DNA from: a virus
UHGV virus genome: UHGV-0038384
Strand: one strand, 5' to 3'
DNA length: 11,815 bases
The position numbers and the translations under genes are program-made. The notes under the pieces were generated by a model. That model ran no database searches and was not told the DNA's origin. It worked only from the letters and a program-made list of their open reading frames with translations. Below are positions 2,060 to 11,815 of the stretch, one piece after another (position 1 is the stretch's first letter; each line of letters starts with the position of its first letter).

Positions 2060-2410
2060 GTTTTTCGCTATTTATGAGATTTTTTGAGGGGGTGGTTGTT
2101 GTTTAATTGTTTGGTATATCTAATTGATAAGTAAGGTAAAAATAAAATAAATACAACAACCTTACGATGTATTTTGATGTCATTAATGTGAAAAAATTCA
2201 ATGATATCAAATGGTTTTGTAAAAACACATGGTTGTTGTATCGCGTATTTGATGGCGTAACAGAAAGTGATTTTTAACTTTACCGCTCTGTAACTACGGA
2301 TTATTCCATGCTGGCACGGAGAACGGCTACGGCATGACGCCACCCAGCCTATACAGAACAGTAAAGCCGATAAATTGTTAATCACGCGCAGCAATGCGTG
2401 TGATTTTTGC

Positions 2411-2641: not shown

Positions 2642-3055
2642 TCAGATGGTTTTCAGTATGTGATCGATGTCGCCGTCATCGCCCTGGTTTCTGCCATCGT
2701 ATGCCATGCCAGCTGATACGGCTTGCGGGCTGTGCATGTCCATAAAGTTTTCAAAGGCTGCGGTAAGCTCTGGTGCAACCTTTGGGCGCTCCTGCTCTAT
2801 GGTCATGTTCAGGATTTCACGAGCATTATCGACGCTAATACATGGCACGTTTGCCATTGCACGTAACAGCGGCTGATAGTCGTTATGTTCATGAAGCGCC
2901 ATAATCGCATCAGCGCGCGGCTTGTCCTGTTCTTCCAGTTTGTTGAGTTGATATACGGCCTCGTAGGTTGATAACCCTCTGTCAGCCATTGCCCGCGCTT
3001 CGGCTTTAAATTTACTCGCCAGCGGTAGCGCCATGATGCTTTCATTCGTTGCCAT
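2642..3055 (-). CDS. Hypothetical 137-aa acidic protein, last gene of the capsid operon next to cos
   Basis: ATG at 3055 with an AGGGGGA Shine-Dalgarno 5-6 nt upstream; starts 12 nt after the D-like stop; no family recognised. Confidence 0.5.
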   Translation of the reverse strand: MATNESIMALPLASKFKAEARAMADRGLSTYEAVYQLNKLEEQDKPRADAIMALHEHNDYQPLLRAMANVPCISVDNAREILNMTIEQERPKVAPELTAAFENFMDMHSPQAVSAGMAYDGRNQGDDGDIDHILKTI

Positions 3056-3067
3056 CGTTCCCCCTGC

Positions 3068-3403
3068 TTATCGGGCCAGCGGCTGAACGGATACGCCAGA
3101 ACCCGCAAAGGCGGCGCATTTTTTCGCATCGGTGTCGACGCTCTCAGGCCAGTTAACGGCGGCGATATTGAATATCCCCGTCTTATAGCACTGTGCTGAT
3201 TTCTGCGTCGACGTGTCAACGGGGTACGAGGTCAGATAAACAGCCTTGCCAGATTCCTGACCATCCCACGGCTTAAACTCGCCATTGTCCGCCAGCATCA
3301 GCGGGGTAAATTCCTGAATAACGCCAGCATCAGCGGCAAAATGTACCAGCGTCGTTGATACCTGCTGACTGCCTGCAAATAACTCAATGTATGGAGTGTT
3401 CAT
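3068..3403 (-). CDS. Head decoration protein, lambda gpD family
   Basis: Motifs TPLMLADNG...WDG, YKTGIFNIAAVNWPES and KKCAAFAGSGVSV align with my recollection of lambda gpD (TPLMLD...WDG, YKSGTFRYEDVLWPEA, KKRTAFAGTAISIV). ATG at 3403 has a GGTGGA Shine-Dalgarno; an alternative GTG start lies at 3412. Confidence 0.75.
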   Translation of the reverse strand: MNTPYIELFAGSQQVSTTLVHFAADAGVIQEFTPLMLADNGEFKPWDGQESGKAVYLTSYPVDTSTQKSAQCYKTGIFNIAAVNWPESVDTDAKKCAAFAGSGVSVQPLAR

Positions 3404-3414
3404 AGAATCCACCG

Positions 3415-4470
3415 TTAACCAATTTTGACGGTAACAAATTTGCGAATATCTGCCGGAACAGGCTGCGGTGCGCTGTGTGTCTGCACGTACTCAATCGCCG
3501 GATCGCCGTCTTCAATCCAGTTTTTCGGGTAAAACATGTTTTGCGTTGCGCCCGTTCTTACCGCTTCCTGTTCCATAATCGCACCATAGGCCACCAGCCC
3601 TTTATTGTTGGTGTTGCCCAGGACCAGCAAATCAGGCTCAAGGAAATATTTTTCTGTGCCGTCGCTGTCAGTGTATTTGCCGGAATAGACGATAAGGGCC
3701 AGATCACCAAGATAGCCTTTAAAGCTCACCACTTCTCCCAGGTTTTTACATGCCAGCTCTGCGGCGGATTCTGAACCACGGGAGAGATCGTACAGTTCAC
3801 GGAATTTTTTAAAGCTGCGTAACATGCGCCATACATCAACGCCCATAATCATGACGTTTGCGGGGCAACCTGCCTGATCTGCGTATAGCTCAATGTCATA
3901 GATTGGGTCGTGTATGTCTTTGTCCTGCTCTGACCATTTTTTACCGTCGGCCTGCTCTATGATGTTTTTTTCCGGTATCTTCCAGTCGATTTCATAGCGC
4001 TCTATGCCTTCGCCCTCAATGATGTTTTTTCCGGTCGTTACCGCATTTACCGCCAGCCATTCCACGCGCGCTTTAATGGCGTTTATCTGGCGGCGCATGT
4101 TGCCAGTAATCAGGCGCATACGGCGGTAGGTAGGGTCGTTAAGCTGTGCTGGATCTTCTCCAGCCATGCGCATTATTGTTTTTAATGGATCGATTTCGTG
4201 TTTTGGCTTCATGTAGCCAGGGCGAATAATGCTTGTTTCGTACCCTTTATCGCGCTGAACCTGGCTACCCACCATAGGCGAACAAAACGCCGACATAGTG
4301 ACTTCTTCAATATCCAGGTTATCTAACATGATGTCCTGTGTGTTGAATGTCGCCACGTTCGGGAAAAACAGCGCGGTAAACAGCGGACTGAATTTAAATT
4401 CCGCAATATCCTCGCGATTCAGGTACGCAAAAAGCTGGTTAGTGTTAAGTGATATTGCTTTTACTGTCAT
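3415..4470 (-). CDS. Major capsid protein, lambda gpE family
   Basis: 351 aa. FKFSPLFTALFF, PGYMKPKHEIDP, WSEQDKDIHDPIYDIELYA and YPKNWIEDGDPA match lambda gpE as I recall it (FKFDPLFLRLFF, PGYVKPKHEVNP, WSKRDKSTYDPTDDIEAYA, YPKNWVTTGDPA). Start overlaps the upstream stop as TAATG. Confidence 0.85.
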   Translation of the reverse strand: MTVKAISLNTNQLFAYLNREDIAEFKFSPLFTALFFPNVATFNTQDIMLDNLDIEEVTMSAFCSPMVGSQVQRDKGYETSIIRPGYMKPKHEIDPLKTIMRMAGEDPAQLNDPTYRRMRLITGNMRRQINAIKARVEWLAVNAVTTGKNIIEGEGIERYEIDWKIPEKNIIEQADGKKWSEQDKDIHDPIYDIELYADQAGCPANVMIMGVDVWRMLRSFKKFRELYDLSRGSESAAELACKNLGEVVSFKGYLGDLALIVYSGKYTDSDGTEKYFLEPDLLVLGNTNNKGLVAYGAIMEQEAVRTGATQNMFYPKNWIEDGDPAIEYVQTHSAPQPVPADIRKFVTVKIG

Positions 4471-4676
4471 TATTCACCCCCGTGAACCTGATTCATACCC
4501 AGCGCCGCGCGTAAATAGGCGCGTACCTGCCAGCCTGTTGACGGCTCAACCATCGCCAGCGGATCAAGTCCTGCCGCAATGCCTGCTTTTACGTTCTGCT
4601 GGTGGCGTTCCTTGAGCGCCTTCACGATGTCGGGGCTTATGTACACCGAAACACCGCCTTTTTTCTCTTCAGCCAT
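4470..4676 (-). CDS. Hypothetical 68-aa protein translationally coupled to the E-like capsid gene
   Basis: ATG at 4676 with an AGAGGAA Shine-Dalgarno; its stop overlaps the E-like start (TAATG at 4468-4472); no family recognised. Confidence 0.5.
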   Translation of the reverse strand: MAEEKKGGVSVYISPDIVKALKERHQQNVKAGIAAGLDPLAMVEPSTGWQVRAYLRAALGMNQVHGGE

Positions 4677-4733
4677 AGTAAGAAATTCCTCTTTGACTTA
4701 AAAAATCATAACTGGATGTTCATCCAGATCTGA

Positions 4734-4760
4734 TTATAATCATGATTGCATTTTATGCAA
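4734..4760 (-). promoter_or_regulatory. Sigma70-like promoter for the capsid operon, with overlapping palindromes
   Basis: On the minus strand: -35 TTGCAT (4760-4755), 15-nt spacer, -10 TATAAT (4739-4734). Palindrome TTGCATTTTATGCAA (4747-4761) overlaps the -35; inverted repeat CTGGATGTTCATCCAG (4712-4727) lies between the -10 and the start codon. Confidence 0.4.
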
Positions 4761-4843
4761 TGATGTTGAGTTGTGTTGCAAATTATGAAATGATAATCCC
4801 GATCATGTGTGTCAGTGCGCCAAAAAAAACCTCATATGCAAAA

Positions 4844-4882
4844 GCCCGATAAGATGCCTCCTGTACTTATCGGGCTTTTTTT
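4844..4882 (+). terminator. Plus-strand rho-independent terminator
   Basis: Stem GCCCGATAAG (4844-4853), 12-nt loop, stem CTTATCGGGC (4866-4875), then T7. Confidence 0.5.
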
Positions 4883-4886
4883 GGGT

Positions 4887-4910
4887 ACAAAAAAGCCGGA
4901 TTACTCCGGC
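4887..4910 (-). terminator. Minus-strand rho-independent terminator after the perC-like gene
   Basis: On the minus strand: stem GCCGGA, loop GTAA, stem TCCGGC, then TTTTTTGT; lies 7 nt after the perC-like stop. Confidence 0.55.
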
Positions 4911-4916
4911 TGTTGA

Positions 4917-5189
4917 TTAGCTGCCTGGGTAATTACGCCATATTTCATCGCTTACACCATCTATACCCATTTCAGCATAAGTGCGATCGACTGCCTTTCT
5001 CAGGTCTCCGAAGTTATCCGGCGGCTCCGGTGGCCTCTGTGCCTTCCTGGAACATTCCAGCCGTCGCATCGTAACCTGATGCCGTTCCTTGTCTGTCTCC
5101 ACCAGCTGCATGACTTCACCCCATCGTGCCGCCGCCCTCCGGTAAAAGCCTTTTGCCTCGAGTTCCTCCGCTATGCGGTCATGTACCAT
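4917..5189 (-). CDS. PerC/Pch-family transcriptional regulator-like protein (90 aa)
   Basis: MVHDRIAEELEAKGFYRRAAARWGEVM resembles the PerC-family signature as I recall it (leucine-rich helix, then WRRAA.RW). Start chosen at the first ATG after the ssb stop (5189), with a GGGGGTGAGG Shine-Dalgarno; the track's longer ORF overlaps ssb. Confidence 0.55.
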   Translation of the reverse strand: MVHDRIAEELEAKGFYRRAAARWGEVMQLVETDKERHQVTMRRLECSRKAQRPPEPPDNFGDLRKAVDRTYAEMGIDGVSDEIWRNYPGS

Positions 5190-8612: not shown

Positions 8613-8898
8613 GTGAAAGGCTCCTACAGTAATTTTAAGGAGTCTCGCTACTACGCTGTCAAACATGGTGGCGAGACGTAACAGGGTTGACAGACTGGCA
8701 CTGTAGAGACCAGCGAGCGCAAAGGCTCCCCCGTTACGCCCCGCCATAATGCGGGTATGGGTAGGTTTACGGACACAAAAAAACCGCATATCGGAATGTA
8801 AGCGGCTGTCCGCTACAGTATTCAGGCTGTCAAACCCGGTCGCCATGTGGGCGACGGGGGAAGCATACAGCCCCGTGATAATTTTTTGCAAGCGGTTT

Positions 8899-9087
8899 TT
8901 ACGCATGATGTGACCCCTGACGAATACGAGCGGCAAATACAGCAACACAACCTGACGGGCAACGGCTACGCGCTTCGCGTTCTGTCCAGGCGGTTACGTG
9001 GATGATTTGAGATTCTGACGCGCCAAAGATGATAAAGCGCCAGATAAATGCGGTTTGAGAATGTACAAGGGTAGGGATAGTAGCCAT
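8899..9087 (-). CDS. Small repeated protein, unit 2 (62 aa), possibly Icd-like
   Basis: GAGGAGG Shine-Dalgarno 8 nt before ATG at 9087. Translation MATIPTLVHSQTAFIWRF...VTAWTEREARSRCP...FAARIRQGSHHA. Confidence 0.4.
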   Translation of the reverse strand: MATIPTLVHSQTAFIWRFIIFGASESQIIHVTAWTEREARSRCPSGCVAVFAARIRQGSHHA

Positions 9088-9456
9088 GTTGGCAGCCTCC
9101 TCAGTGTGGTTAAGATAACCGCCACGCAAAAGGCTAATTTCGCTGGTGGCGGACTGTACAGGGTTAGCCTTACCGGACACTGAAGAAACCGGCGCGGATT
9201 GCTCCGCCCCCGTACAGCCCACCATTGATAAGGTGTGACTATGCGGCACAAAAAAACACGCGGGGCGCGTGCTGTGCGCTTCAGTTGTTTTCAGGAGGCT
9301 AATCCCGACACCCGTTTTATGAGGTGCGCGGGAATCATAGCCATTTTTGCTGGTGGCGATCAAGCGGTTTTTTTCTCCGGCACTCAGTGCCAGAAAACGC
9401 CACACAAAGGCCGTTTGTGTGTGTACAAGGTGTGGTATATGATTTACGGCAACCAT
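9088..9456 (-). CDS. Small repeated protein, unit 1: N-terminal homologue with a degenerate tail, fused in frame to unit 2 with no stop of its own
   Basis: AGGAG Shine-Dalgarno plus ATG at 9456; MVAVNHIPHLVHTQTAFVWRFLALSAGE parallels the unit 2 N-terminus; the frame stays open to the unit 2 stop at 8899. Confidence 0.25.
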
Positions 9457-10147: not shown

Positions 10148-10354
10148 TTAAGCAGCCGTTCCGCGTGCTTCCTCTTCGCGTTCTTTCTGCCAGGACAACA
10201 CATCATCCTCATACCATCCGCGACGGCGTAAACCAACGCGAAAACCCTGCGGAAATTCTCCGGCGTTGATCATGCTTTGCAGCGTGCTGTCTGCCTTGAT
10301 GTGGATAATTTTTTTTACTTCCTGGCGAAAGATAATTTTTCTGATTGCTTCCAT
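10148..10354 (-). CDS. alpA: AlpA-family transcriptional regulator (prophage CP4-57 regulatory protein type)
   Basis: 68 aa; IIFRQEVKKIIHIKADSTLQSMINAGEFPQGFRVGLRRRGWYEDDVLSWQ matches the AlpA helix-turn-helix pattern; lies on the integrase side of the operon. Confidence 0.8.
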   Translation of the reverse strand: MEAIRKIIFRQEVKKIIHIKADSTLQSMINAGEFPQGFRVGLRRRGWYEDDVLSWQKEREEEARGTAA

Positions 10355-10850: not shown

Positions 10851-11815
10851 CTACACGGCTCGGATACCCCTTTTACCACTGGCGAGGGTTACGCCCGTCG
10901 CCGCAGCCTCGACAAATTCGCCCCACCAGCGCATCAGCACGATGCGTTTTTCTATGTAGTTGCTCCGGTTGTATGCCCGTCTAACTTCGTTGGTGTCGAC
11001 GTGGGCAAGTGCCGCCTCTATTACGTCCGGCTCGAATCCTTCCTCGTTCGCTGCTGTGCTGAATATGGCGCGTAATCCATGAGACACCAGCACGCCAGCG
11101 AATCCCATACGCCGCAATGCTGCGTTAGCTGTCTGGCTGTTCATCGGCTGCTGTGGGTCTTTCAGACTTGGGAAAACGTAATTGCGGTGGTGGCTGATTG
11201 GTTTCATGGCCTCCAGCACCGCCATAGCCTGACCGGAAAGCGGGATAACGTGATCCCTGCGCATCTTCATGCGTCCGGCAGGTATCGTCCATTGCTTCGC
11301 GTCCAGGTTGATTTCATCCCACCGCGTTGATGACGCTTCGGCGGGACGGGTTACGGTCAGTAACTGCCATTCAATCAGTAATCTGGTCTGCCGTTCTGTT
11401 GCCGATACTGATAAAGCCTGCATAAGCTCGGGCAGCTGTTCGGGGCGGATTGTTGGCATATGTTTTTTTACAGGTGAGGGAAACGCCTTACGCACATTCA
11501 TAGCCGGATTGGCATCAATCAGCCCACTGTTGGCGGCGTAATCCATTACCTCATTAACGCGCTGTAAAACCCGCTTGAGTGTTTCCAGGTTGCCGCGCTC
11601 CTTGATGGGGGTAAGCACTTCAACGAACCTTCGGGCGGTGAGGGTATCTATTGGCGTGTTGCCGATGAACGGGAATACATATTTATCCAGCGAACGCCAG
11701 ATGTCTTTAATCGTGTTGGGGGCCAGATTCTGGCTGATTTTCACCTGGTACCATGCCGCCGCCACATTTTCGAACGTGTTCCCTTGTCTTCGGGCCTCTG
11801 TCTCTCTTTTTTGCC
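10851..11815 (-). CDS. int: Tyrosine integrase, P4 / phage-integrase family; 5' end outside the window
   Basis: Catalytic-domain motifs (HGLRAIFSTAANEEGF, ALAHVDTNEVRRAYNRSNY) and core-binding region. The frame remains open from the track's GTG at 11765 to the window edge, so the N-terminal domain is upstream of the window. Confidence 0.85.
   Translation of the reverse strand, partial: QKRETEARRQGNTFENVAAAWYQVKISQNLAPNTIKDIWRSLDKYVFPFIGNTPIDTLTARRFVEVLTPIKERGNLETLKRVLQRVNEVMDYAANSGLIDANPAMNVRKAFPSPVKKHMPTIRPEQLPELMQALSVSATERQTRLLIEWQLLTVTRPAEASSTRWDEINLDAKQWTIPAGRMKMRRDHVIPLSGQAMAVLEAMKPISHHRNYVFPSLKDPQQPMNSQTANAALRRMGFAGVLVSHGLRAIFSTAANEEGFEPDVIEAALAHVDTNEVRRAYNRSNYIEKRIVLMRWWGEFVEAAATGVTLASGKRGIRAV

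Follow-up and report, generated by a model that had tools for sequence, protein, structure and literature searches.

The stretch of DNA analyzed here, 11,815 nt of the UHGV virus genome UHGV-0038384 (in the following, the window), carries an operon of four genes on its minus strand at positions 2642-4676 with a terminator on each side. In the direction of transcription the genes code for a 68-aa protein (open reading frame 68, ORF68), a major capsid protein (MCP) of the lambda gpE type, a decoration protein and a 137-aa protein (ORF137), exactly at the coordinates given in an initial annotation of the sequence. We regard it as practically certain that this operon is the late module of a Gram-negative phage-inducible chromosomal island (PICI) of the EcCICFT073 family and that its genes are gene-for-gene orthologues of c1498-c1501. 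The capsid cluster as such is already known from EcCICFT073 and of low novelty. New in the present analysis are the assignment of ORF137 to the Nu3/gpC scaffolding domain, the satellite MCP clade, the gene order E-D as a marker, the evidence for selection, the count of carriers (598 of 5,426 genomes) and the loss of rppA. The positions of all features are collected in Table 1.

Each of the four genes is preceded by a Shine-Dalgarno sequence. The stop codon of ORF68 and the start codon of the MCP gene overlap in the sequence TAATG with base 4470 in common, which confirms the stop-start coupling noticed initially. No related island examined has lost this overlap, which persists down to 60-65% identity and in a second genus. 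For the decoration gene, the GTG at 3412 proposed as start is a possible alternative, while RefSeq starts the gene at the ATG at 3403, whose ribosome-binding site is the better one. Upstream, two intrinsic-terminator-like hairpins separate the operon from a PerC-family gene. One of them was called by the scan (4911-4894); the second was recognised by eye as a GC hairpin flanked by runs of A and T. Both are kept in the CFT073 and O157 islands and may insulate the operon from the replication module. The terminator closing the operon is identical in these two islands. Between the hairpins and ORF68 lies a putative promoter/operator region, in which a perfect 7-3-7 palindrome of 17 bp, ATTGCATAAAATGCAAT, at 4745-4761 (found once in the window versus 0.01 expected by chance) overlaps a TTGCAT(-35)-16 nt-TATAAT(-10, 4733-4738) arrangement, and a ribosome-binding site, AAGAGGAA, lies upstream of ORF68. 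Among the aligned islands, the whole region is kept in all four with ORF68, and the helper-embedded PICI, which has no ORF68, lacks the region as well. A promoter scan with a strict consensus made no call in this region; the arrangement of the motifs suggests promoter function.

The MCP matched the Pfam family Phage_cap_E (PF03864; E = 4e-49) and is 43% identical to lambda gpE over 328 aa. In PDB, it retrieved 3BQW (E = 7e-229), the crystal structure of this MCP (c1499) labelled 'putative capsid protein of prophage', and lambda gpE (7VI9; E = 4e-81). The best phage MCP among 50,697 phage records showed 48% identity, compared to 43% for lambda and 41% for phi80. As no phage MCP exceeds 48% identity, a self-contained set of capsid proteins is favoured over mixing with helper subunits. 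The decoration protein belongs to the Pfam family HDPD (PF02924; E = 4e-18). Its identity to lambda gpD is 37%, and it is nearer to phage 21 SHP, as seen also from the PDB matches (1TD0, SHP, E = 6e-14; gpD, E = 1e-9). From one satellite lineage to another, the two proteins diverge in step (MCP/decoration protein identities of 62%/52% in one comparison and 54%/54% in a second). The genes are ordered C/Nu3, D, E in lambda and E, D, ORF137 in the island, so the reversed order described initially is real.

On the evidence of profile comparisons, ORF137 is homologous, as a shortened and free-standing protein, to the C-terminal domain for scaffolding and capsid targeting that the lambdoid gpC protease and gpNu3 have in common. 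It matched the C-terminus of phrog_53 (head maturation protease; positions 494-567 of 583, E = 7e-10). Its sole phage match, in phage 204576, lies between the S49 protease domain and D (37% over 83 aa, pairwise E = 2e-12), and in the phage-21-type prophages L011-L013 the match likewise falls exactly between protease and D. An exhaustive profile search with ORF137 yielded few relatives, one of which (P0075, 195 aa) represents the C-terminus of Nu3/gpC in phage 21, in Gifsy-1 and in many lambdoid phages. Alignment of the ORF137 family with P0075 by hhalign gave a probability of 96.7% (E = 3e-10, 114 columns), and 88% (E = 3e-6) was reached with a profile of 11 gpC/Nu3 homologues, that of lambda among them, each represented by its last 150 residues. 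The Nu3/gpC domain is characterized by a repeat, 'RIMgIL.ceEA.GRE....LA.tPGMTve.A..IL', followed by 'F/L D..M...P..v..G' and an acidic/hydrophobic C-terminal tail. ORF137 holds two copies of a repeat of ~38 aa, 'IMAL.EA...PG.tv..A..iL', of which phage 21 Nu3 has three and lambda one. It keeps the motif 'F..FM..HSP..V' and ends in the invariant, acidic/hydrophobic tail DIDHILKTI, which parallels the phage tail DDLLNTPV.

The direct comparison with lambda Nu3 and the quality of the structure model weigh against this assignment. The match to lambda Nu3 alone was weak (E = 0.008, probability 5%), though the best of 12 lambda proteins, so that the link to Nu3 depends on the comparison of profiles. 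The predicted structure is all-helical and of low confidence beyond residue 50, and a fold search with this low-confidence model returned nothing significant. Neither lambda gpC nor the L004 prophage gpC was matched by ORF137 in BLASTP, which reflects that the homology is visible only via phage-21-type sequences and profiles. Large protein searches with ORF137 or ORF68 retrieved almost exclusively close enterobacterial relatives, and some NCBI records label ORF137 as 'head-tail connector protein'. An 80-aa ORF behind the decoration gene of the STEC383 island seemed plausible by eye as a one-repeat mini-Nu3; it gained no support from hhalign and was dropped. With ORF137 as a Nu3-type protein, the island encodes scaffold, coat and cement, and the statement in the initial annotation that a scaffold is missing was wrong.

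ORF68, the satellite-specific 68-aa protein translationally coupled to the MCP gene, had been regarded as a candidate scaffold or size determinant, a role that our results do not support. No match to it was found in the 50,697 phage records, its relatives being all enterobacterial (E. coli, Salmonella and Pluralibacter), and no similarity to lambda head proteins or PDB sequences. The AlphaFold2 model (pLDDT 74) consists of an extended N-terminus and two helices and had no significant structural neighbour in fold searches. As ORF68 has neither a phage relative nor an assignable fold, ORF137 is the better scaffold candidate. A weak likeness connects ORF68 with ribbon-helix-helix DNA-binding proteins (the pattern GVSVYISPDIV followed by two helices, and one weak match to BrnA). 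Its possible action as such a protein at the 17-bp palindrome, which is present only together with ORF68, is a lead only.

The window matched the complete E. coli chromosome NZ_CP145707 at 99.3%. In this chromosome, the island comprises ~11.4 kb, extending from window position ~947 past the window end, and is flanked by a yejO autotransporter pseudogene on one side and tRNA-Pro/yejM on the other; cytochrome-c maturation and ribosomal genes follow beyond. The full integrase gene (1,242 nt) adjoins tRNA-Pro in locus L001, and an imperfect copy of the tRNA 3' end was found at the yejO side. According to RefSeq, all annotated island genes except one share a single strand. The minus-strand gene order is integrase, AlpA-like helix-turn-helix (HTH) gene, Ash/Icd region, DUF4222, D5-type primase, SSB, PerC-family gene, capsid operon, two cos sites and a 93-aa ORF (ORF93). 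This agrees with the published four-zone layout of Gram-negative PICIs, i.e. Integration, Bro/immunity, Replication and Late (PMC10111431): integrase and AlpA-like gene form the first zone, Ash/Icd and the C4/isrK RNAs the second, DUF4222, primase and SSB the third, and PerC, capsid operon, cos and ORF93 the fourth.

Neither Pfam and PHROG scans of the window ORFs nor the RefSeq annotation of the whole island and its flanks revealed a portal, protease or terminase gene, and no head-tail connector, large terminase, lysis or tail genes were present among the scanned ORFs and the RefSeq island annotations, in which the MCP and decoration genes are the only structural genes. The absence of the needed head genes bears out the earlier view that the element is unable to build a head alone. 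With proteins of the lambda E and D families, the operon might also be a fragment of the head module of an ordinary lambdoid prophage, in which case further head genes were to be expected just outside the window. Instead, the 11.4 kb between yejO and tRNA-Pro have housekeeping genes on both sides, the neighbours of the operon are PICI genes, and the ~30 prophage loci compared all have the opposite gene order. The yejO and tRNA-Pro/yejM flanks rule out a prophage fragment, to which we assign next to no probability; together with the absence of portal, protease and terminase genes, they identify the island as a satellite, as presumed initially.

The gene order was compared in a species-level genome scan. 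A single-MCP query of the genome contigs found nothing, and the loci were obtained with an alignment query. All of the ~30 prophage loci had the arrangement TerS-TerL-portal-C-D-E-FI-FII. Ten out of ten satellite loci from E. coli, Kluyvera, Cedecea, Superficieibacter and Kosakonia, helper-embedded PICIs included, had E followed by D and no portal, an order seen in none of the prophage loci. E before D thus provides a simple genomic marker separating satellite from prophage capsid genes. In a neighbour-joining tree, the ten satellite MCPs formed one clade (100/100 bootstrap), sister to the MCPs of lambda-, 21- and phi80-type phages. The single clade and the fixed order indicate that the module was acquired once, long ago, and then evolved within satellites. 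The four-gene module was also found with a different replicase and a Nu1-like small terminase subunit (TerS). Three helper-embedded PICIs (L004, L009 and L050; E. coli, Cedecea and Kosakonia) reside inside the E gene of a lambdoid prophage, which is split into 5' and 3' parts around them, and each carries its own E-then-D pair. Compared to lambda and phage 21, the island has the same three families (Nu3/gpC scaffold domain, decoration protein and HK97-fold coat) and the same cosN. The lambdoid head module Nu1-A-W-B-C/Nu3-D-E-FI-FII is represented only by E, D and a fragment with the Nu3 domain, in reversed order on one strand. The identity is only 37-48%, the scaffold is free-standing with two repeats and no protease, portal, terminase, W, FI and FII are missing, and ORF68 is an additional, satellite-only gene.

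EcCICFT073 contains the same four genes in the same order with the same coupling; terminator and cos1 behind the operon agree as well, and so does the replication module. Fillol-Salom et al. 2018 list in their supplement c1498 (68 aa), c1499 (capsid, 351 aa), c1501 (137 aa) and also c1502 (60 aa), and the article names c1499 capsid protein and c1500 head decoration protein (PMC6092414); the old locus tags and protein lengths of c1498-c1501 agree with the window genes. EcCICFT073 sits between roxA and phoQ, whereas the present island uses another attachment site, tRNA-Pro, and another integrase/AlpA module. The occurrence of lambda-type capsid genes in enterobacterial satellites, left unconfirmed initially, is documented in the literature, an MCP gene being present in 21 of the 29 reference Gram-negative PICIs (PMC10111431).

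Behind the operon, two exact matches to the lambda-type cosN in inverted orientation (0 expected by chance) bracket a variable segment (2044-2579). The first of them, cos1, starts 38 nt past the operon terminator, and 43 of its first 45 nt match the lambda left end before the sequences diverge. Two exact lambda cosN sites imply dependence on a helper of the lambda cos type. Between the cos sites, CFT073 carries rppA, whereas O157 and the helper-embedded PICI carry a Nu1-like terS; in the window there is no gene, and only the end of rppA has been left. A CCGGACATG-repeat (cosB-like) beside cos1 of the window equals the reverse complement of the sequence beside cos2 in CFT073. The cassette suggests recombination between inverted cos sites and subsequent deletion as its origin.

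Table 1. Features of the island in the window, with amino acid identity to EcCICFT073 and ratios of non-synonymous to synonymous substitution rates (dN/dS)
Feature	Position	Strand	Size	Identity to EcCICFT073	dN/dS	Remarks
ORF68	4676-4470	minus	68 aa	98.5%	0.22-0.45	c1498
MCP	4470-3415	minus	351 aa	94.9%	0.11-0.22	lambda gpE type; c1499
Decoration protein	3403-3068	minus	111 aa	96.4%	0.06-0.24	lambda gpD / phage 21 SHP type; c1500
ORF137	3055-2642	minus	137 aa	92.0%	0.21-0.26	c1501; dN/dS against the window copy
Two intrinsic-terminator-like hairpins	4839-4911	minus				between PerC-family gene and operon
Putative promoter/operator region	4677-4838	minus				from sequence reading
Intrinsic terminator closing the operon	2617-2638	minus				9-bp stem and T8; 4 nt past the ORF137 stop
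cosN, cos1	2568-2579	minus				exact lambda-type GGGCGGCGACCT
rppA remnant	2283-2348		22 codons			last codons of rppA; between the cos sites
cosN, cos2	2044-2055	plus				exact lambda-type GGGCGGCGACCT
ORF93	1698-1979	minus	93 aa	83.7%	0.13-0.28	phrog_1561; after cos2
PerC-family regulator gene	4917-5189	minus				Pfam E = 2.5e-44; directly upstream of the capsid operon, two terminators between
SSB				100%		
Primase				89%	0.21	comparison gene for dN/dS
HTH protein	10148-10354		68 aa			integrase-proximal; Phage_AlpA E = 0.003, 17.9 bits (gathering score 21); RefSeq: HTH regulator
Tyrosine integrase	10851-11765			22%		Pfam PF00589, PF22022; transcribed inward, at one island end

For these genes we propose that an insulated late transcription unit would supply matched shell parts, with ORF137 as internal mini-scaffold, the MCP as gpE-type coat and the decoration protein as gpD-type cement, while ORF68 would serve as a satellite-specific coupled accessory or regulator. 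Since the island lacks portal, protease, terminase, head-completion and tail genes, any satellite shell must rely on helper parts. It would nucleate on the helper portal and be matured by the helper protease; the helper terminase would fill it at the lambda-type cos of the island and helper tails would join. Such an island would possess partial capsid autonomy, halfway from a classical PICI to a capsid-forming one, with a supply of shells independent of the helper. This supply would be redundant with lambda, phi80 or the CFT073 prophage as helper. We advance the mechanism tentatively, as the likeliest of the functions considered though with our judgement leaning somewhat against it; the identity of the module and the mechanism taken as one statement come, as a compromise, to slightly less than an even chance. 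It is unlikely, in our estimate, that a self-sufficient kit under the control of ORF68 builds satellite-specific heads, possibly of a smaller triangulation number if the right helper is at hand, on a stolen helper portal.

The published genetics of EcCICFT073, the only island of this family for which helper-dependent induction, replication and high-frequency transfer have been demonstrated experimentally (PMC6092414), weigh against satellite shells. Deletion of c1499 or c1500 left both the interference with lambda and the transfer by the resident prophage unchanged, and no phenotype for c1499 was detectable by the authors. DNA packaged with lambda was phage-sized, with the island version used there unstated, and an island with the MCP gene replaced by cat was moved efficiently by lambda and phi80 (PMC6092414). 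Moreover, when the genes downstream of the origin were overexpressed, only c1503 (rppA) inhibited lambda, and deletion of rppA alone restored lambda plaques almost fully (PMC6739421). The null deletions, the transfer of the cat island and the phage-sized DNA signify that satellite shells are not required and not detectably used with these helpers. RppA and TerS are absent from the present island. As RppA is required for efficient packaging of EcCICFT073 (PMC6739421) and only a remnant of 22 codons is left here, the present island may be poorly mobilisable.

How far these null results reach depends on the islands used. We considered that they might be void through disruption of ORF137 in c1501::tetA; the primers of Table S6 place tetA right after the c1501 stop and before the terminator, so that the module is intact in the tetA-marked island. 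In Table 1 of that study, the donors lysogenic for lambda and phi80 carry the c1499::cat island (PMC6092414). Without the MCP gene in these donors, the transfer experiments with lambda and phi80 did not test the intact module.

In SaPI1, CpmB acts as an alternative internal scaffold on the helper coat protein with a demonstrated effect on capsid size. ORF137 resembles CpmB in being short and helical and related in role, here by homology, to a helper-type internal scaffold. SaPIbov5 is, like the present island, a cos-packaged satellite with a homologue of the helper-type MCP (here of the gpE family, 41-48% identical to helper-type MCPs). Its Ccm redirects phi12 capsids into small isometric ones (PMC8569155). 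By analogy, the island proteins could remodel helper capsids, either by co-assembly of the MCP in the manner of Ccm or by ORF137 acting in the manner of CpmB on the helper MCP, resulting in smaller or differently stabilised heads that fit the 11.4-kb genome and exclude that of the helper. Apart from these precedents (PMC8569155; bioRxiv 10.1101/2022.09.08.507074), remodelling is favoured by the combination of an MCP homologue with a shortened scaffold homologue carrying a lineage-specific C-terminal tail, by the small capsids made by PmCI172, which also has an MCP homologue (PMC6092414), and by the c1499::cat donors, in which the intact module was not tried with lambda or phi80. However, all DNA packaged with lambda was phage-sized, deletion of c1499 or c1500 changed neither interference nor transfer in the tetA island with its intact module, and single late-zone genes other than rppA left lambda uninhibited upon overexpression. 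Furthermore, 41-48% identity to the helper MCPs makes a mixed lattice less likely than with a close homologue. In contrast to Ccm, the EcCICFT073 homologue caused no size change or interference with lambda, and the MCP is accompanied here by a decoration protein and a scaffold homologue. We rate remodelling as distinctly unlikely, and the initial idea of an MCP homologue redirecting capsid size finds no support in c1499, 95% identical to the MCP of the window.

Whatever their role, the genes are maintained. A full-length operon was present in 598 of the 5,426 complete E. coli genomes (11%, about one in nine), among them O157:H7, O103:H2, O55:H7, ATCC 25922 and CFT073. All four coding sequences were annotated in 29 of 29 sampled records covering the whole operon, and the genes were intact in every E. 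coli island examined. The dN/dS ratios (Table 1) show purifying selection on all four genes, which are functional rather than decaying. The genes could in principle be non-functional baggage, late genes captured from a helper and merely carried along. Deletions without phenotype would fit, and PICIs have dynamic late zones that take up genes from prophages (PMC10111431). In an island of Pluralibacter gergoviae (L068:6207-7260; also L067), the MCP gene is frameshifted into pieces of 179 aa and 170 aa, which demonstrates that the module can be lost and counts against the proposed shell function as well. In the same island ORF68 and the decoration gene are intact, and the MCP is uncalled in the NCBI assembly. 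Baggage is nevertheless very improbable. Purifying selection acts no less strongly here than on the primase, all E. coli copies examined are intact, and 11% of complete genomes have the genes. Moreover, the satellite clade is single and old, its gene order is fixed and unlike that of phages, and the translational coupling is conserved.

That genes so strongly conserved show no phenotype in the laboratory might also suggest a conditional role in defence or interference. The shell proteins would poison capsid assembly in certain lambdoid phages other than the helper, or would serve as decoys or as insensitive substitutes where a system of the host or of a rival targets capsid proteins of the helper; host and satellite transfer would be protected in these situations only. 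PICIs often interfere with their helpers and carry defence cargo, and the helper-embedded PICIs insert in the E gene of the helper while carrying an E homologue. Against this, lambda was not interfered with once rppA had been removed, nor upon overexpression; evidence of any target phage is lacking, and a poison needs no matched decoration protein and scaffold. We consider a defence function improbable.

The proposed supply of satellite shells also has to be seen beside the capsid-forming PICIs such as EcCIEDL933, which share with the present island a PICI backbone and satellite-encoded capsid proteins. They also encode portal, protease, head-tail connectors, HNH, TerS and TerL in a module of the HK97 type (bioRxiv 10.1101/2022.09.08.507074), and none of these extra genes occurs in the present island. 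If the self-sufficient kit considered above exists, these very common islands would be an evolutionary and functional intermediate between classical and capsid-forming PICIs, and redundancy with the three helpers tested, all of the lambda type, would account for the null phenotypes in the literature. Although selection clearly maintains the genes, our literature search, eight years after they were described, found no later paper giving c1498-c1501 a function. A Nu3-type scaffold, a coat and a decoration protein in an old satellite clade turn satellite shells on helper portals into a testable proposal, and the remaining interest lies in this question of function and in the Nu3-type assignment, which makes it testable.

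A relative with a different late zone is the helper-embedded PICI 11capE, which has an MCP of the same satellite clade, the E-then-D order and the four-zone layout (PMC10111431). It differs in that it integrates in the E gene of its helper and carries an HTH protein and a Nu1-like TerS instead of ORF68 and ORF137. With P4-like satellites, the island has only Ash/Icd genes and C4/isrK immunity RNAs in common; the P4-like sid, psu, delta and alpha primase families were not detected in Pfam and PHROG scans or in the RefSeq annotation. The RNAs were located with Rfam on the minus strand (C4 antisense RNAs at 9142-9229 and 8664-8751, isrK RNA at 9251-9327 and a C4 a1b1 target at 8819-8868) and constitute a duplicated RNA immunity unit of the P1/P4 type. 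They sit within long 'Ash/Icd-like' ORFs (window 8664-9327), so that the 168-aa and 219-aa ORFs of this region are probably mostly non-coding.

Among the remaining genes, the primase contains D5_N, DUF5906 and Pox_D5 domains and matched phrog_864 (E = 5e-168). Position and size of the integrase-proximal HTH protein fit an AlpA-family regulator, with a score below the gathering cut-off. The PerC-family protein may regulate the late operon; published studies of other PICI PerC proteins deal only with expression of the enterocyte effacement locus (LEE). Its gene appears in the mechanical ORF list as a 130-aa ORF overlapping SSB, and the annotated 90-aa form does not overlap. ORF93 is a conserved satellite gene, the last gene in every related island, with a 63% identical copy in the helper-embedded PICI.

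At positions 1-850 the window contains the 3' part of yejO, an autotransporter gene (domains Pertactin and Autotransporter) that is annotated as a pseudogene with an internal stop in the near-identical genome. An integrase repeat resembling arm-type sites, CCGTATAAC(C/T)AAACGTATAACTAAAA, occurs near both island ends, at window ~1015-1051 and past the window beside the integrase gene. In the non-coding stretch from ORF93 to the island end (~1460-1570), the sequence GTGGTCATTATGACCAT forms two exact 17-nt repeats 95 nt apart. The genome scan also returned L018-L030 and many short loci (L015-L065) on low-coverage contigs with head genes from Nu1 to Z 100% identical to lambda, in assemblies of unrelated organisms, for example Neobacillus, Kitasatospora, Bradyrhizobium, Akkermansia and Prevotella; these are almost certainly lambda control DNA contaminating the assemblies.

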